This document shows positions 1 to 10,501 of a stretch of 10,501 bases of DNA, one piece after another. The stretch comes from a virus (taxonomy: Duplodnaviria; Heunggongvirae; Uroviricota; Caudoviricetes): the IMG/VR virus record IMGVR_UViG_2681813225_000023, positions 1-10,501 of that record, one strand, 5' to 3'. Below the pieces are notes generated by a model that worked only from the letters and a program-made list of their open reading frames with translations, made no database searches and was not told the DNA's origin. Position 1 is the first letter of the stretch, and every line of letters starts with the position of its first letter. The position numbers and the translations under genes are program-made.

Positions 1-460
1 CCACGCCAGAGACGTGTTGCTGTGGCGACCGTCATCACTTCCGGTCAGCACGTCGTGCGTTTTCCCCTTGTTGTCAGTTACGCGGAGATAATCCCCGGAG
101 AAAGTCGACACACGGCTGTAAGCCATACCGCCTGACGCGGATGCGCCGCCACCAACAGCCCCGCCAATGGCGCTGCCGATACTCCCGACAATCCCCACCA
201 TTGCCTGCTTAAGCAGAATTTCTGTCATCATGGACAGCACGGAACCGGTGAAGCTACGCCAGTTCTGTTCACTGCCGGTCAGCATCGCCGCCATATTCTG
301 TGCAATACCATCAAAGGTCTGCGTGGCTGCACTTTTTACCTGCAACATACAGTCCGTGGCGCTCTCTTCCCACTCACTCCAGCCGGACTTCAGGCCTGCC
401 ATCCAGCTCCCGCGAAGCTGGTCTTCAGCCGCCCAGGTCTTTTTCTACTCTGACATGACG

Positions 461-480
<20 letters not shown>
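1..480 (-). pseudogene. H: Internal fragment of the tail tape-measure gene (lambda gpH-like); 5' two-thirds missing, in-frame TAG at 445-447, continues past window start
   Basis: Minus frame open from 444 to 1 (148 codons) reads KKTWAAEDQLRGSWMAGLKSGWSEWEESATD...AMVGIVGSIGSAIGGAVGGGASASGG..., which I recognise as the C-proximal part of lambda gpH. Codons 480-448 read NPLALNNVMSE in the same frame, then TAG. The frame is entered from a TGA at 481-483, so there is no start codon. Confidence 0.75.
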
Positions 481-3954
<3,474 letters not shown>

Positions 3955-3980
<26 letters not shown>

Positions 3981-4500
3981 TCAGCAACCCCGGTATCAGT
4001 TCATCCAGCGCGGCTGCTTTGTTCATGGCTTTGATGATATCCCGTTTCAGGAAATCAACATGTCGGTTTTCCAGTTCCGGAAAACGCCGCTGCACCGACA
4101 GGGGGATCCCGTCGAGAATACTGGCAATTTCACCTGCGATCCGCGACAGCACGAAAGTACAGAATGCGGTTTCCACCACTTCAGCGGAGTCTCTGGCATT
4201 TTTCAGCTCCTGTGCGTCGGCCTGCGCACGCGTAAGTCGATGGCGTTCGTACTCAATAGTCCCTGGCTGGAGATCTGTCTCGCTGGCCTGCCGCAGTTCT
4301 TCAACCTCCCGGCGCAGCTTTTCGTTCTCAATTTCAGCATCCCTTTCGGCATACCATTTTATGACGGCGGCAGAGTCATAAAGCACCTCATTACCCTTGC
4401 CACCGCCTCGCAGAACGGGCATTCCCTGTTCCTGCCAGTTCTGAATGGTACGGATACTCGAACCGAAAATGTCAGCCAGCTGCTTTTTGTTGACTTCCAT
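3955..4500 (-). CDS. Nu1: Terminase small subunit gpNu1, 181 aa, apparently intact
   Basis: 181-aa ORF MEVNKKQLADIFGSSIRTIQNWQEQGMPVLRGGGKGNEVLYDSAAVIKWYAERDAEIENEKL... matches lambda Nu1 in length and sequence. The N-terminal winged-HTH DNA-binding region is present. ATG at 4500-4498. Confidence 0.95.
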
Positions 4501-4677
4501 TGTTCATTCCACGGACAAAAACAGAGAAAGGAAACGACAGAGGCCAAAAAGCTCGCTTTCAGCACCTGTCGTTTCCTTTCTTTTTAGGGGGTATTTTAAA
4601 TAAAAACATTAAGTTACGACGAAGAAGAACGGAAACACCTTAAACCGGAAAATTTTCATAAATAGCGAAAACCCGCG
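4501..4677 (-). promoter_or_regulatory. cosB-like region (Nu1 R-sites and IHF site) between cosN and the Nu1 start
   Basis: The reverse complement of 4501-4689 reads GGGCGGCGACCTCGCGGGTTTTCGCTATTTATGAAAATTTTCCGG...GAAAGGAAACGACAGGTGCTGAAAGCGAGC...ATG(Nu1), which is the lambda left-end cos sequence with a few substitutions. Individual R1-R3 and I1 sites were not mapped. Confidence 0.65.
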
Positions 4678-4689
4678 AGGTCGCCGCCC
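4678..4689. other. cos: cosN: the 12-nt cohesive-end sequence of lambda
   Basis: AGGTCGCCGCCC on the plus strand is GGGCGGCGACCT on the minus strand. It sits 178 bp upstream of the Nu1 start in the lambda context (CGCGGGTTTTCGC follows). Confidence 0.85.
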
Positions 4690-4888
4690 CGTAACCTGTC
4701 GGATCGCCGGAAAGGACCCGCAAAATGATAATAATTATCATCTACATGTCACAACGTGCATCTACGCCATCAAACCACGTCAAATAATCAATTATGACGC
4801 AGGTATCGTATTAATTGATCCGCATCAACTTAACGTAAAAACAACTTCAGACAATACAAATCAGCGACACTGAATACGGGGCAACCTC

Positions 4889-5083
4889 ATGTCAACGAAG
4901 AACAGAACCCGCAGAACAACAACCCGCAACATCCGCTTTCCTAACCAAATGATTGAACAAATTAACATCGCTCTTGATCAAAAAGGGTCCGGAAATTTCT
5001 CAGCCTGGGTCATTGAAGCCTACCGTCGGAGGCTAACGTCAGAAAAGAGAGCATATACATCAATTAAAAGTGATGAAGAATGA
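4889..5083 (+). CDS. ylcI: Small YlcI-like protein, 64 aa, with a ribbon-helix-helix (Arc/CopG-like) pattern
   Basis: 64-aa ORF MSTKNRTRRTTTRNIRFPNQMIEQINIALDQKGSGNFSAWVIEAYRRRL... has a basic N-terminus, a short strand (RNIRFP), then helix-loop-helix, consistent with RHH DNA binders. Position (just outside cos) and length match the lambda/DLP12 ylcI-type ORF as I recall it. Confidence 0.55.
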   Translation: MSTKNRTRRTTTRNIRFPNQMIEQINIALDQKGSGNFSAWVIEAYRRRLTSEKRAYTSIKSDEE

Positions 5084-5247
5084 ACATCCCGCGTTCTTCC
5101 CTCCGAACAGGACGATATTGTAAATTCACTTAATTACGAGGGCATTGCAGTAATTGAGTTGCAGTTTTACCACTTTCCTGACAGTGACAGACTGCGTGTT
5201 GGCTCTGTCACAGGTTAAGTAGTTTGAATGATTAGCAGTTATGGTGA

Positions 5248-5454
5248 TCAGTCAACCACCAGGGAATAATCCTTCATATTATTATCGTGCTTCACCAACG
5301 CTGCCTCAATTGCCCTGAATGCTTCCAGAGACACCTTATGTTCTATACATGCAATTACAACATCAGGGTAACTCATAGAAATGGTGCTATTAAGCATATT
5401 TTTTACACGAATCAGATCCACGGAGGGATCATCAGCAGATTGTTCTTTATTCAT
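5248..5454 (-). CDS. ybcW: Small YbcW-like protein of unknown function, 68 aa
   Basis: 68-aa [74 protein letters not shown] at 5454 with GGAGCG about 7 nt upstream. Length and location match the DLP12/lambda ybcW-type ORF as I recall it. Confidence 0.55.
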
Positions 5455-5739
5455 TTTGTCGCTCCATGCGCTTGCTCTTCATCTAGCGGTTAAAATATTA
5501 CTTCAAATCTTTCTGTATGAAGATTTGAGCACGTTGGCCTTACATACATCTGTCGGTTGTATTTCCCTCCAGAATGCCAGCAGGACCGCACTTTGTTACG
5601 CAACCAATACTATTAATTGAAAACATTCCTAATATTTGACATAAATCATCAACAAAACACAAAGAGGTCAGACCAGACTGAAACGATAAAAACGATAATG
5701 CAAACTACGCGCCCTCGTATCACATGGAAGGTTTTACCA

Positions 5740-6150
5740 ATGGCTCAGGTTGCCATTTTTAAAGAAATATTCGATCAAGTGCGAAAAGATTTAAACTGTG
5801 AATTGTTTTATTCTGAACTAAAACGTCACAATGTCTCACATTATATTTACTATCTAGCCACAGATAATATTCACATTGTGTTAGAAAACGATAACACTGT
5901 GTTAATAAAAGGACTTAAAAAGGTTGTAAATGTTAAATTCTCAAGAAATACGCATCTTATAGAAACGTCCTATGATAGGTTGAAATCAAGAGAAATCACA
6001 TTTCAGCAATACAGGGAAAATCTTGCTAAAGCAGGAGTTTTCCGATGGGTTACAAATATCCACGAACATAAAAGATATTACTATGCCTTTGATAATTCAT
6101 TACTATTTACTGAGAGCATTCAGAACACTACACAAATCTTTCCACGCTAA
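5740..6150 (+). CDS. ybcV: YbcV-like (DUF1398-type) protein, 136 aa
   Basis: The track ORF 5617..6150 begins at a TTG. The ATG at 5740 has GGAAGG 8 nt upstream and gives 136 aa ([47 protein letters not shown]...), matching the length and position of ybcV-type genes next to bor. Confidence 0.65.
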
Positions 6151-6441
6151 ATCATAACGTCCGGTTTCTTCCGTGTCAGCACCGGGGCGTTGGCATAATG
6201 CAATACGTGTACGCGCTAAACCCTGTGTGCATCGTTATTAATTATTCCCGGACACTCCCGCAGAGGAGTTTCCCTGTCAGGGCTGCGGACATAGTTAATC
6301 CGGGAATACAGTGACGATCCTTCGCATCTGACATACATTAATAAATATTAACAATATGAGATTTCAACTCATTGTTTAGGGTTTGTTTAATTTTCTACAC
6401 ATACGATTCTGCGAACTTTAAAAAGCATCGGGAATAACACC

Positions 6442-6735
6442 ATGAAAAAAATGCTACTCGCTACTGCGCTGGCCCTGCTTATTACAGGATGTGCCCAACA
6501 GACGTTTACTGTTCAAAACAAACCGGCAGCAGTAACACCAAAGGAAACCATCACCCACCATTTCTTCGTCTCTGGAATTGGGCAGAAGAAAACTGTCGAT
6601 GCAGCCAAAATTTGTGGCGGCGCAGAAAATGTTGTTAAAACAGAAACCCAGCAAACATTCGTAAATGGATTGCTCGGTTTTATTACTTTAGGCATTTATA
6701 CTCCGCTGGAAGCGCGTGTGTATTGCTCACAATAA
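6442..6735 (+). CDS. bor: Bor outer-membrane lipoprotein (serum-resistance moron), 97 aa
   Basis: MKKMLLATALALLITGCAQQTFTVQNKPAAV... has a signal peptide with lipobox LITGC and is near-identical to recalled lambda Bor (97 aa). It is convergent with Rz, as in lambda. Confidence 0.93.
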   Translation: MKKMLLATALALLITGCAQQTFTVQNKPAAVTPKETITHHFFVSGIGQKKTVDAAKICGGAENVVKTETQQTFVNGLLGFITLGIYTPLEARVYCSQ

Positions 6736-6743
6736 TTGTATGA

Positions 6744-6765
6744 GTTGCCCATCGATATGGGCAAC
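6744..6765. terminator. Hairpin between convergent bor and Rz; candidate bidirectional terminator
   Basis: GTTGCCCAT-cgat-ATGGGCAAC is a perfect 9-bp stem with a 4-nt loop. It starts 9 nt after the bor stop and ends 1 nt before the Rz-frame stop (6767-6769). The flanking U-tracts are weak. Confidence 0.45.
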
Positions 6766-6766
6766 T

Positions 6767-7227
6767 CTATCTGCACTGCTCATTAATATACTTCTGGGTT
6801 CCTTCCAGTTGTTTTTGCATAGTGATCAGCCTCTCTCTGAGGGTGAAATAATCCCGTTCAGCGGTGTCTGCCAGTCGGGGGGAGGCTGCATTATCCACGC
6901 CGGAGGCGGTGGTGGCTTCACGCACTGACTGACAGACTGCTTTGATGTGCACCGACGACGACCAGCGGCAACATCATCACGCAGAGCATCATTTTCAGCT
7001 TTAGCATCAGCTAACTCCTTCGTGTATTTTGCATCGAGCGCAGCAACATCACGCTGACGCATCTGCATGTCAGTAATTGCCGCGTTCGCCAGCTTCAGTT
7101 CTCTGGCATTTTTGTCGCGCTGGGCCTTGTAGGTAATGGCGTTATCACGGTAATGATTAACAGCCCAAGACAGGCAGACGATGATGCAAATAACCAGAGC
7201 GGAGATAATCGCGGTTACTCTGCTCAT
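6767..7227 (-). pseudogene. Rz: Rz (inner-membrane spanin) gene with a 1-nt deletion frameshift near 6951
   Basis: From ATG 7227 the frame reads [45 protein letters not shown]...DDVAAGRRR (lambda Rz residues 1-92), then shifts into the Rz1 frame ([21 protein letters not shown]...). The true Rz C-terminus ([60 protein letters not shown]) is in another frame at 6950-6767. Confidence 0.85.
6826..7007 (-). pseudogene. Rz1: Rz1 (outer-membrane lipoprotein spanin) embedded in Rz, disrupted by the same 1-nt deletion
   Basis: ATG at 7007 follows AAGGAG and reads [19 protein letters not shown], then shifts at the lipobox Cys codon to [10 protein letters not shown]. The mature Rz1 sequence [41 protein letters not shown] continues in the Rz N-terminal frame down to 6826. 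Confidence 0.75.
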
Positions 7228-7700
7228 ACCTCAATCTCTCTGACCGTTCCGCCAGCTTCTTTGAATTTTGCAATCAGGCTGTCAGCCTTATGCTCGAACT
7301 GACCATAACCAGCGCCCGGCAGTGAAGCCCAGATATTGCTGCAACGGTCAATTGCCTGACGAATATCACCGCGATCAATCATCGGTAAAGCGCCACGTTC
7401 TTTAATCTGCTGCAATGCCACTGCGTCCTGGCTTTTGGGGGAGAAGTCTTTCAGGCCAAGCTGCTTACGGTAAGCATCCCACCAGCGTGAAAGAAGCTGA
7501 TAACGTCCGGCTGCTGTTGATTTGAGTTTGGGGTTTAGCGTGACAAGTTTGCGAGGGTGATCGGAGTAATCAGTAAATAGCTCTCCGCCTACAATGACGT
7601 CATAACCATGATTTCTGGTTTTCTGCCGTCCGTTATCCGTTCCTTCTGACCATGCCACCATATCGAGGAAAGCTTTACGCTGAGGATTAAGATTTTGCAT
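7224..7700 (-). CDS. R: Endolysin R (lambda-type lytic transglycosylase), 158 aa
   Basis: [61 protein letters not shown]... has the same length as lambda R and is near-identical except for the first ~15 residues. The catalytic Glu in WSEG is present. Stop overlaps the Rz ATG. Confidence 0.93.
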
Positions 7701-7992
7701 TTTTCACCCCTGTCAGTCGTTCCCAGAAGTATGTCAGTGCAACCGAACCCATCGCACCACTAATCCCCGCTGTCGCGAGAATCATGTAAATACTGAATCC
7801 ACTTTCGATACTGATCAGGCCACCAATAACACCGGTGAATCCCGACACCACTATCTGAGCCAAAGCATTTATCCAGCTCCACGTTGCTTTACTCTGCTTC
7901 ACATCTATCAGGTAGCGGACCAGACCGCCCCAACCTGCGATGATCAGCAAAACGAGCCAGAACGCTCCGGCAAGGCTCTCTTTTTCGTGCAT
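7687..7992 (-). CDS. S: Holin (class I, three predicted TMDs), non-lambda family; an in-frame TTG at 8004 lies 4 codons upstream
   Basis: The ORF lies immediately upstream of and overlaps R. The product MHEKESLAGAFWLVLLIIAGWGGLV...WINALAQIVVSGFTGVIGGLI...GFSIYMILATAGISGAMGSVAL...[11 protein letters not shown] has three hydrophobic segments and a charged C-terminal tail. It is unrelated to recalled lambda S. Confidence 0.75.
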   Translation of the reverse strand: MHEKESLAGAFWLVLLIIAGWGGLVRYLIDVKQSKATWSWINALAQIVVSGFTGVIGGLISIESGFSIYMILATAGISGAMGSVALTYFWERLTGVKNAKS

Positions 7993-8106
7993 ATGAATAG
8001 CCAATGTTTCGCCGCCGACAAAAGGCCGGGACGTTAAATGTCAGAAATCAGGCTCACGGGGTAATTTAACGACAAAGCACGGAGTTGATGCTCCCCGCAA
8101 GCCTGG

Positions 8107-8132
8107 AATAAAAAAGCCAGCATGTAGCTGGC
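8107..8132 (-). terminator. tR'-like intrinsic terminator between the Q-like gene and the holin
   Basis: On the minus strand GCCAGC-tacat-GCTGGC (6-bp stem) is followed directly by TTTTTTATT. It lies about 115 nt upstream of the holin start, matching the lambda pR'-tR' (6S RNA) layout. Confidence 0.6.
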
Positions 8133-8254
8133 AACAGAGGGTTAAGCAATATCAACTCAACAGCTGAAGACACCCTGGCTGGGGTACGTTGGAAGGATAC
8201 TCACCGCCCAGAAACAGAAAAGCCCAAGGCTTTAAACCTCGGGCTTGAATTTGG

Positions 8255-8283
8255 ATTACGGCCAGTGCGTACAACATTGGCAA
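8255..8283 (-). promoter_or_regulatory. Candidate late promoter (pR'-like) and probable Q-utilisation region
   Basis: On the minus strand TTGCCA (8283-8278), a 17-nt spacer, then CGTAAT (8260-8255). It sits about 30 bp downstream of the Q-like stop and about 120 nt upstream of the terminator. The -10 match is weak. Confidence 0.3.
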
Positions 8284-8313
8284 AATATCAGATTTACATA
8301 AAACATATGATTT

Positions 8314-8916
8314 TTAATCCAGTTTTGCAATATCTTGCTGTGAAAATGTGGTCTTTTGTTTTGAACGTGTTTTCGTTAAAAGCAATAAAGCTTGGCTATC
8401 AAGCTGTAGAAAAATGTGCTTCATTGCAACCCAGCGTTCAGTAAATGTCTCAGACCAGTTTTTTGATGTCACTCCCACCAGTGATGCCAACTCCTGGTAT
8501 TCATAGGTCTTACGCCCTGCCAGCTCGTTCTTCACATCCTGTGCCGCCAGCCAGATCAACTTCTTCAAACGTTCCAGTGTCTTACCTGCAATTTTCCTGG
8601 TACCCAACAGAGTCTTAAACTCGCTCCATGCCCACTGCGTTATGGTGACCTGATGTTCCCAGCGAACACTTTCGCTGTAACTCCACAGCAACCACGCTTT
8701 CTGATGTTCTTCGAGAGACAGAACCGCGCGGCGCCATGATGATGTTGAGAACTCGATCGGACTGACCAGGGCAATGGATGAGCCTTTCGCCCGTGACTGC
8801 TTACCGGGTATCGGCGGATTATCCAGCGTTATTAACCTGCCGGTCACTTCATCCAGAATGCGCGGTTTCTTTCGTTTGTATGTATGCTTGCCGACATGGG
8901 ACTTGTTCAATGACAC
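8314..8916 (-). CDS. Hypothetical protein in the position of late antiterminator Q; family not recognised; possibly 5'-truncated
   Basis: 200-codon ORF (VSLNKSHVGKHTYKRKKPRILDEVTGRL...YEYQELASLVGVTSKNWSETFTERWVAMKHIF...) directly upstream of the promoter-terminator-holin arrangement. It begins at GTG with no ATG and no clear SD; the frame is open upstream only to 8955. Confidence 0.35.
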   Translation of the reverse strand: MSLNKSHVGKHTYKRKKPRILDEVTGRLITLDNPPIPGKQSRAKGSSIALVSPIEFSTSSWRRAVLSLEEHQKAWLLWSYSESVRWEHQVTITQWAWSEFKTLLGTRKIAGKTLERLKKLIWLAAQDVKNELAGRKTYEYQELASLVGVTSKNWSETFTERWVAMKHIFLQLDSQALLLLTKTRSKQKTTFSQQDIAKLD

Positions 8917-9167
8917 CTCAGCAAGAAAACGCCCTTCGCAGTATTGCCCGTCAGGCTAATTATGAAATCAAAAAAGCCAGACAGCAGTTTCCGGATAAAA
9001 ACGTCGATGACATTTGCCGTAGCGTACTGAAGAAGCACCGCGAAACGGTAACGCTGATGGGATTCACACCGACTCATTTAAGCCTGGCGATATATCGGTC
9101 ACAAACTCCCTCAGCAGCTAAGAGGAGGACAAATGTCTCGACTAATCACTTTACAGGACTGGGCTAA
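8910..9167 (+). CDS. Small hypothetical protein upstream of xis, 85 aa from ATG 8910
   Basis: Track ORF 8778..9167; its first 44 codons run antisense through the Q-like 5' end, so the ATG at 8910 (MTPQQENALRSIARQANYEIKKARQQFPDKNVDDICRSVLKKHRETVTLMGF...) is more plausible. The 3' end overlaps the xis start by 35 nt. No family recognised. Confidence 0.35.
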   Translation: MTPQQENALRSIARQANYEIKKARQQFPDKNVDDICRSVLKKHRETVTLMGFTPTHLSLAIYRSQTPSAAKRRTNVSTNHFTGLG

Positions 9168-9369
9168 AGAAGAATTTGGGGACTTAGCACCAAGTGAGCG
9201 AGTTCTGAAAAAATACGCGCAAGGGAAAATGATGGCCCCACCCGCTATAAAAGTTGGTCGCTACTGGATGATTGACCGAAATTCCCGTTTTGTAGGAACG
9301 CTTGCAGAACCGCAACTCCCAATCAACGCAAACCCAAAACTCCAACGGATAATCGCTGATGGCTGCTAG
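9133..9369 (+). CDS. xis: Excisionase (lambda Xis-like), 78 aa
   Basis: MSRLITLQDWAKEEFGDLAPSERVLKKYAQGKMMAPPAIKVGRYWMIDRNSRFVG... shares the LTLQEW...PPP-K-GR motif pattern of lambda Xis. Strong SD AGAGGAGG 5 nt upstream. It overlaps the int start by 11 nt, as in the lambda xis-int arrangement. Confidence 0.8.
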   Translation: MSRLITLQDWAKEEFGDLAPSERVLKKYAQGKMMAPPAIKVGRYWMIDRNSRFVGTLAEPQLPINANPKLQRIIADGC

Positions 9370-10501
9370 ACCCCGATCTCACAAAATCTCTATACCCAAT
9401 TTATATTGCAAATTAGATAAGCGAACCGGAAAGGTATATTGGCAATACAAACATCCACTATCCGGTCGTTTTCATAGTTTAGGAACTGATGAGAATGAAG
9501 CAAAACAGGTTGCTACTGAAGCAAATACCATTATTGCTGAACAACGTACCCGACAAATATTAAGCGTCAATGAGCGTCTGGAAAGAATGAAAGGCAGGCG
9601 CTCAGACATTACGGTGACAGAATGGCTTGATAAATATATTTCTATCCAGGAGGACAGGCTGCAACATAATGAACTAAGACCCAACTCCTATTGGCAAAAA
9701 GGCAAACCCATTCGTCTCTTCCGTGAGCATTGTGGAATGCAACACCTCAAGGATATTACCGCACTTGATATTGCCGAAATAATTGATGCTGTAAAGGCTG
9801 AAGGTCATAACAGGATGGCGCAAGTCGTGAGAATGGTGTTGATCGACGTCTTCAAAGAAGCACAACACGCAGGACATGTTCCGCCAGGATTTAACCCAGC
9901 GCAGGCAACAAAACAACCGCGAAATCGAGTAAACCGCCAAAGATTATCACTGTCCGAATGGCAGGCAATATTTGACAGCGTAAGTAGACGGCAGCCCTAT
10001 TTAAAATGCGGGATGCTACTTGCTCTTGTCACTGGACAACGTTTAGGCGATATCTGCAATTTGAAATTCTCTGATATCTGGGACGACATGTTGCACATTA
10101 CTCAGGAAAAAACCGGTTCAAAACTTGCTATTCCGCTTAACCTGAAATGCGATGCTCTGAATATTACCCTTCGTGAAGTTATATCTCAGTGCAGGGATGC
10201 TGTTGTTAGTAAATATCTGGTCCATTACCGTCACACTACCTCTCAAGCAAACAGAGGAGACCAGGTGTCTGCAAATACTCTTACAACGGCTTTTAAAAAG
10301 GCCAGGGAAAAATGTGGCATAAAATGGGAGCAAGGAACTGCGCCCACATTTCATGAGCAGCGATCTCTGTCAGAACGGTTATATCGGGAACAGGGTCTGG
10401 ATACGCAAAAGTTGTTAGGTCATAAATCCAGAAAAATGACCGACCGATACAATGATGATCGTGGTAAAGACTGGATTATCGTAGATATCAAAACAGCATA
10501 G
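9359..10501 (+). CDS. int: Tyrosine integrase (lambda Int family), 380 aa, apparently intact
   Basis: MAARPRSHKISIPNLY...ALVTGQRLGDICNLKFSDI...TFHEQRSLSERLY...LLGHKSRKMTDRYNDDRGKDWIIVDIKTA aligns by eye with lambda Int (R, K, HxxR, H and Y catalytic positions present). The stop codon is the last three bases of the window. Confidence 0.93.
   Translation: MAARPRSHKISIPNLYCKLDKRTGKVYWQYKHPLSGRFHSLGTDENEAKQVATEANTIIAEQRTRQILSVNERLERMKGRRSDITVTEWLDKYISIQEDRLQHNELRPNSYWQKGKPIRLFREHCGMQHLKDITALDIAEIIDAVKAEGHNRMAQVVRMVLIDVFKEAQHAGHVPPGFNPAQATKQPRNRVNRQRLSLSEWQAIFDSVSRRQPYLKCGMLLALVTGQRLGDICNLKFSDIWDDMLHITQEKTGSKLAIPLNLKCDALNITLREVISQCRDAVVSKYLVHYRHTTSQANRGDQVSANTLTTAFKKAREKCGIKWEQGTAPTFHEQRSLSERLYREQGLDTQKLLGHKSRKMTDRYNDDRGKDWIIVDIKTA

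Follow-up and report, generated by a model that had tools for sequence, protein, structure and literature searches.

In the window, by which we mean the whole 10,501-nt stretch analysed here, the ORF listing places a Q-like ORF of 200 codons on the minus strand (8916 to 8314) and, on the plus strand, xis (9133–9369) and int (9359–10501), whose products matched the Pfam profiles Exc (PF07825) and Arm-DNA-bind_1 (PF09003) together with Phage_integrase (PF00589), respectively. The initial annotation had placed the Q-like ORF beside xis-int with one small ORF between them, and the positions agreed with this: the interval (8917–9132) is 216 bp long and is crossed by a single small ORF (8910–9167, plus strand). 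It had also stated that the window carries no repressor, N or replication gene, and indeed no repressor, N, O or P gene was found in the window by the ORF listing, the Pfam scan or the annotation. The window is 99.98% identical to Escherichia coli 2014C-3011 (NZ_CP027591.1), and its features are listed in Table 1. The holin start given there (7992) is that of RefSeq, while the mechanical ORF listing starts it at 8004, and the cos region is expected immediately upstream of Nu1. The segment from 4747 to 6384 carries ylcI (DUF3950), ybcW and ybcV (DUF1398), and its counterpart in Escherichia phage PhiR47_2, the reference used below, amounts to a 112-bp match only; as judged from its DLP12-type gene names, this block is a mosaic replacement between cos and bor.

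Table 1. Features of the window and blocks aligned to PhiR47_2 around the deletion junctions (positions in nt of the window)
Feature	Position	Strand	Basis and remarks
Tail tape-measure remnant (H-like, C-terminal part)	1–478	-	Window 126–480 = PhiR47_2 32821–32479 within gene H, 93%; PGAP tape-measure pseudogene in 2014C-3011
Junction J3, tape-measure fragment/cut portal gene	479–480		PhiR47_2 24314–32478 lost, ~8.2 kb
Portal (B-like) pseudogene	479–1855	-	GAA to TAA at 917–919; C-terminus removed at J3; PGAP 'internal stop; incomplete'
Head-tail joining protein W, intact ORF	1852–2058	-	ORF listing, annotation, PhiR47_2 alignment
Terminase large subunit (A-like), intact ORF	2055–3980	-	98% identity to PhiR47_2
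Terminase small subunit Nu1 (nohD-like), intact ORF	3955–4500	-	ORF listing, annotation, PhiR47_2 alignment
bor lipoprotein gene	6442–6735	+	ORF listing, annotation
Rz/Rz1 spanin gene, frameshifted	6767–7227	-	1-nt deletion 6951/6952
Endolysin (GH24), intact ORF	7224–7700	-	ORF listing, annotation
Holin (Phage_holin_3_3)	7687–7992	-	Pfam, annotation
Candidate late promoter pR', phage 82 type	8210–8330	-	Predicted from sequence, terminator scan and description in PMC5001585
5'-truncated Q antiterminator (Q82 family), codons 41–229 only	8314–8884	-	Pfam, alignments, PGAP pseudogene 'missing N-terminus'
Junction J1, microhomology TA	8883–8884		13,605 bp of early region absent relative to PhiR47_2 (2485–16089)
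exo-xis-region gene remnant (orf61-like, phrog_303)	8885–9088	+	25 bp of upstream sequence and codons 1–60
Junction J2, microhomology GAT	9089–9091		733 bp absent: orf61 3' end, TraR/DksA-like gene, DUF4222 gene
Chimeric 85-codon ORF made by J2	8910–9167	+	61 orf61-like residues and 24 new; RefSeq 'ZapA'
Excisionase xis, intact	9133–9369	+	Pfam, annotation, strong Shine-Dalgarno
Lambda-type tyrosine integrase int, intact	9359–10501	+	Pfam, annotation; icd and attL just outside the window
Aligned block, bor to Q nt 120	6385–8884		PhiR47_2 18586–16090; BLAST
Aligned block, orf61-like gene	8883–9091		PhiR47_2 2484–2276; BLAST
Aligned block, xis and int	9089–10501		PhiR47_2 1542–130; BLAST

The Q-like ORF matched PF06323, the profile of the Q82 family (PMC9388147), with 268 bits (cut-off 25; E 8e-80), profile positions 34–217 corresponding to residues 8–191, as well as phrog_304 ('anti-termination protein Q-like'; E 7e-87), and a closely related full-length gene, with 97% identity in the DNA common to both, showed 98% DNA identity to the phage 82 Q record X92588. 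These comparisons sharpen the earlier Q-like call to a phage-82-type Q antiterminator and rule out the possibility, also raised at that stage, that the 200-aa ORF is an early or b-region gene. Residues 41–229 of the window Q are 93–99% identical to full-length Q82-type proteins. When compared with the full-length 229-aa Q of O157 PV15-279 and PhiR47_2, identity begins at T41 and is preceded by 10 unrelated codons; profile positions 1–33 and the first 40 of the 229 codons are missing, with 119 nt absent relative to PhiR47_2. The ORF had been described as devoid of an ATG and a Shine-Dalgarno sequence, and this was borne out, as no ATG occurs in it before residue 164 and no spaced Shine-Dalgarno was found for the GTG at 8916, while xis, by contrast, has AAGAGGAGG. 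This GTG, at which the mechanical listing starts the ORF, falls in sequence foreign to Q. In contrast to members of the phage 82 Q family, the window gene therefore lacks its first 40 codons, its own start codon, a ribosome-binding site and a promoter reading into it; it is a pseudogene, and RefSeq (PGAP) annotates it as such ('incomplete; missing N-terminus'). A PDB sequence search with the full-length Q82-type protein returned no solved relative.

As in the phage 82 family, the window Q lies directly upstream of what appears to be a phage-82-like late promoter, a pause element, a terminator and the lysis cassette: its stop codon at 8314 is followed by terminator-like hairpins at 8246–8220 and 8132–8116 and by the holin gene from 7992. 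The candidate pR' has a −35 element at 8330–8325, a −10 element at 8307–8302 (TTGCAA-17-TATGTT) and a putative +1 at 8295, followed by a candidate pause-inducing element resembling an extended −10 (TGATATTTT, 8290–8282), GCC at 8281–8279 (+15–17), a candidate pause at +25 (8271), which is a U, and a strong hairpin terminator with a T tract at 8246–8220. These positions fit the description of the 82 pR' (PMC5001585), and the assignment of promoter, pause and terminator, made against this textual description rather than an aligned published sequence, is a putative one. A sigma-70 consensus scan of 7900–9450 found two promoter-like sites, compared with 2.0 in shuffled sequence, and missed the presumed pR' because this site matches at 8 of 12 positions only. 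The region is conserved in relatives save for one −10 base, at window 8304, the hexamer being TATGTT in the window and 2014C-3011 and TATATT in CFSAN004176, O157 PV15-279 and PhiR47_2; this base is the sole difference between the window and CFSAN004176 within 7900–9091.

Comparison with an intact relative had been advised as a way of mapping the breakpoint beside Q. As reference we used PhiR47_2 (PV340567.1), an intact relative that contains both sides of the junction and whose record is in prophage order; the window was aligned to it by BLAST and the lost genes were read from its annotation. Since PhiR47_2 is a stand-in for the true ancestor, the size and gene content of the lost segments are estimates. 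Except for the gaps, the window is collinear with this complete lambdoid phage, with six blocks in the same orientation in which int, xis, the orf61-like gene, Q, S, R, Rz, bor, Nu1, A, W and B are 93–99% identical, and the icd-type att region is common to both. Identity is 98.6–98.9% for int, xis and orf61 and 94.9% from Q to bor, and the moron block at 4747–6384 is wholly different. PhiR47_2 differs from the window in that it keeps a 13.6-kb early region, a 733-bp TraR/DUF4222 block and an 8.2-kb head/tail block, and in that it lacks the ylcI-ybcW-ybcV block.

The alignment puts J1 at 8883/8884, at a 2-bp microhomology (TA), with its two sides 13.6 kb apart in PhiR47_2. The 13,605 bp lost there comprise orf63, orf60a, exo, bet, gam, kil, a toxin-antitoxin pair, cI, cro, cII, O, P, ren, accessory genes, ninB, ninE, ybcO, rusA, ylcG and the first 119 nt of Q. 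At J2 (9089–9091; microhomology GAT, 3 bp) a further 733 bp are missing, namely the last 10 codons of orf61, a TraR/DksA zinc-finger gene and a DUF4222 gene, which brings the total for both junctions to ~14.3 kb relative to PhiR47_2. Short microhomologies of this kind are typical of illegitimate recombination. The initial annotation had proposed that a deletion endpoint removed the 5' end of Q, and codons 1–40 are indeed missing at J1. Its deletion reading holds as regards the loss of the early region but not as a single event, as there were two successive deletions; likewise, a large early region is gone, as its figure of 15–20 kb between xis-int and Q implied, although the size relative to PhiR47_2 is ~14.3 kb.

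The small ORF between Q and xis is a by-product of J2. Its 85 codons comprise 61 orf61-like residues (phrog_303) and 24 new residues derived from the sequence upstream of xis, and the phrog_303 counterpart in PhiR47_2 is annotated as 'orf61' and located between xis and exo. In lambda, the exo-xis region (described in PMC7093339) contains orf61, orf63, orf60a, ea8.5 and ea22; the chimera shares its first 61 residues with phrog_303 and differs from these genes in that the C-terminal 10 residues of the orf61-like protein are swapped for 24 unrelated ones, and its N-terminus would be cut as well should translation start further upstream, giving 93 codons. The ORF is thus a chimeric remnant of an exo-xis-region (orf61-like) gene. 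RefSeq names it 'cell division protein ZapA' (WP_244504765.1). We rejected this identity, since no Pfam profile matched at E<=0.01 and the only NCBIfam match was a chance one to pfkB (E 0.16); the label is a naming error on a chimera made by deletion.

Decay is not confined to the early region. At J3 (479/480), ~8.2 kb have been lost, comprising the portal C-terminus, C/Nu3, D, E, FI, FII, Z, U, V, G, T and most of H; this junction is also present in CFSAN004176 and absent from O157 PV15-279. Besides its truncation, the portal gene carries a nonsense codon (GAA to TAA at 917–919, codon 313). In Rz, a 1-nt deletion at 6951/6952 (CAAC to CAC) shifts the frame into the embedded Rz1 and yields a fused Rz'-Rz1 ORF; it was found in none of 5,426 complete E. 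coli genomes (best match 99.7%), so that it represents a mutation of the source strain alone or an error of sequencing. The essential lytic genes lost from the prophage thus include cI, cro, O, P, nin, the 5' end of Q, C/Nu3 to T and most of H, in addition to the portal gene interrupted by its nonsense codon.

Beyond int, where it had been suggested that immunity genes might lie in a non-canonical arrangement, the host gene icd was found instead, 114 bp from int in 2014C-3011. The icd attachment site has been described for e14 (PMC6379469). No attR was found in the first 20-kb flank; after a further 49 kb, an icd fragment was located beside iraM, 25.75 kb from the phage-derived icd 3' end, of which it repeats 217 bp in direct orientation with 95% identity. 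The search for attL and attR proposed in the initial annotation thus ended with the icd 3' end beside int and its repeat near iraM, and both att repeats are present, outside the window, so that the prophage occupies an attachment site bounded by direct repeats. The element extends over 25.75 kb and, from the tail-fibre genes to attR, carries non-phage cargo (2014C-3011 extracted loci 1–8100 and 45850–49001), which includes ompT, an alpha/beta hydrolase, a methyltransferase, an ISEc8/IS66 element, a GNAT acetyltransferase, a frameshifted HTH-cupin regulator and a cluster encoding a general stress protein, two ferritin-like proteins and a Mn catalase. The HTH gene near attR was considered as a displaced immunity repressor and rejected, as it encodes a frameshifted XRE-HTH and cupin regulator beside the GNAT acetyltransferase, without a repressor-type peptidase domain.

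Chance statistics do not apply to gene adjacency, and the relevant test is whether the junctions are real. When the 5,426 complete E. coli genomes were searched, both J1 and J2 were found in five of them, with 100% identity over 1.5 kb, from human stool, cattle and bovine faeces. Three further genomes (CFSAN004176, 2013C-4974 and OkiPb01713) carry J1 only and keep orf61-TraR-DUF4222 intact. This distribution indicates that the junctions are real and that the deletions occurred stepwise: because the genomes with J1 alone still hold orf61-TraR-DUF4222, the sequence comparison shows J1 to be the earlier event, with J2 and an IS600 insertion following in separate lineages. The insertion splits int in CFSAN004176, the only one of the three J1-only genomes that was examined in detail; IS600 lies there at 14302–15566 of the extracted locus, equivalent to window 9562–9564, with a 3-bp overlap at the insertion point. 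In 2013C-4974 and OkiPb01713, the same 2,237-bp span as in CFSAN004176 was observed. Genomes that share J1 differ from each other by only ~0.1–0.3% and the divergence from PhiR47_2 is older than the decay, so dN/dS on the retained genes is uninformative on selection after the deletion.

Related prophages at icd have lost the same region by other routes. In O157:H7 PV15-279 and F3113, the same int-xis module and the same Q-to-terminase block lie at icd with a different junction, at which a truncated ylcG meets a truncated DUF4222 gene (ylcG'/'DUF4222; PV15-279 extracted locus 9001–9227); Q and portal are full length there, and in PV15-279 the Q-lysis-terminase block is 97.9% identical to the window. 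Strain A10 shows yet another set of junctions (Q'/rusA'/'DUF1382; extracted locus 8045–9027). The O157 arrangement could not have given rise to that of the window, nor that of the window to the O157 one. Among 11 genomes with deletions between the exo-xis region and Q in icd prophages, we counted three independent events, so that this prophage family has lost its early region on at least three separate occasions.

These data bear on the possibility that two resident prophages recombined or were rearranged, joining an icd-integrating int-xis module to an unrelated Q-lysis-terminase module. Lambdoid phages are mosaic, these STEC genomes harbour several related prophages (six matching places per record), and the identity to PhiR47_2 is unequal on the two sides of the junction (98.6–98.9% for int, xis and orf61 versus 94.9% for Q to bor), as would be expected from such an exchange. 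However, both sides are collinear with PhiR47_2 and in the same orientation, the 2-bp microhomology fits an illegitimate deletion, and the same two modules occur together at icd in O157:H7 PV15-279 (97.9%) with another junction. Independent losses imply that the icd prophage already held both modules, which argues against a chimera of two prophages and leaves it, in our judgement, a small probability.

The compact int-xis-Q-lysis-terminase arrangement could instead be a natural functional architecture, that of a phage satellite or a PICI-like cos element, given that the lysis genes are kept along with int, xis, cos, Nu1/A and the two att repeats and that early-region loss beside this xis recurs independently in three lineages. 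This is highly improbable. Each of the three breakpoints interrupts ORFs (Q at codon 40, orf61 at codon 61, and portal/tape measure), where a satellite or PICI would have its boundaries between genes; a nonsense codon interrupts the portal gene, int is split by IS600 in a sister lineage, and the window contains no replication, primase, helper-interference or capsid-redirecting gene of the kind that such an element would carry. An artefact of assembly or sequencing at the junction, for which the private 1-nt Rz deletion, with its hint of errors in the source sequence, might be cited, can practically be dismissed in view of the identical junction sequence in five complete genomes of separate sources and of J1 alone in three more.

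Taken together, our results identify the window as part of a decaying lambda-like prophage within E. coli icd, from which two deletions have stripped ~14 kb of genes for control, replication and recombination, so that a Q without its 5' end now adjoins xis-int. We are confident that the segment 8884–9091 bears the scars of two deletions, produced by stepwise loss from a PhiR47_2-like ancestor, and that the prophage is a defective lambdoid one at the icd 3' end. That ancestor would have had the prophage order int-xis-DUF4222-TraR-orf61-orf63-orf60a-exo-bet-gam-kil-...-cI-cro-cII, continuing with O-P-ren-nin-rusA-ylcG-Q-S-R-Rz-bor-cos-Nu1-A-W-B-.... Illegitimate recombination at TA first took out ~13.6 kb, from just upstream of orf61 to Q codon 40, and a later deletion at GAT took 733 bp more between orf61 and xis.

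With pL, pR, cI, N, O, P and the start of Q gone, no Q would be made, and in its absence transcripts from pR' would end at the terminator before the lysis genes, so that holin, endolysin and terminase would remain silent; the loss of pL, pR, cI, N, O and P would also leave the remnant with neither immunity nor replication. We agree with the initial annotation that such a remnant could probably not run a lytic programme on its own, as the lost genes suggest, and the head/tail deletion, the portal nonsense codon and the Rz frameshift point the same way. It is possible that the Q fragment, started at the GTG, has residual function, or that the Q of another prophage activates the late genes in trans. 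Still present are int-xis and the two att repeats, pR'-terminator-holin-endolysin, bor and cos-Nu1-A-W, and this cryptic remnant would be active only with help in trans, or as a recombination substrate for incoming lambdoid phages. A more far-reaching reading is that a remnant with intact int-xis, att repeats, cos-Nu1/A/W and an apparently intact 82-type pR' unit is not inert, in that its late genes could be switched on in trans by a co-resident or superinfecting lambdoid phage with a Q82-type protein and it could itself be mobilized by such a phage or recombine with it, the recurrent deletions being a favoured, selectively safe route to domestication; we regard this as doubtful.

The same kind of decay is seen in the cryptic prophages of E. 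coli K-12 (DLP12, Qin, Rac and e14) and in the defective pool of O157 Sakai, which are likewise integrated lambda-like prophages that lost essential genes by deletion, IS elements and point mutation and which, as in the window, keep int/xis, lysis genes, bor and terminase. Several genes of the window bear DLP12 names (rzpD, nohD, ybcV, ybcW and ylcI). The K-12 prophages differ in their breakpoints: DLP12 presumably keeps ren, nin genes, rusA and an intact quuD, whereas in the window Q abuts xis because the whole block from the exo-xis region to Q codon 40 is gone. As regards location, the prophage lies, as do e14 and phage 21, in the icd 3' end, for which it provides a replacement (PMC6379469).

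According to the established view, deletions disarm prophages by taking out lytic control along with immunity and replication, and the modules at the periphery stay (reviewed in PMC6379469). The window is a case of ordinary stepwise prophage decay; the biology is known, Q was already flagged as a pseudogene in the public annotation, and the import beyond annotation, where a ZapA misnaming has been exposed, is small. What is gained is that, for one cryptic icd prophage of a group of E. coli isolates that are Shiga-toxin-related or bovine, the breakpoints are placed to the base and the events put in sequence, and that three independent early-region losses are added within a single prophage family.
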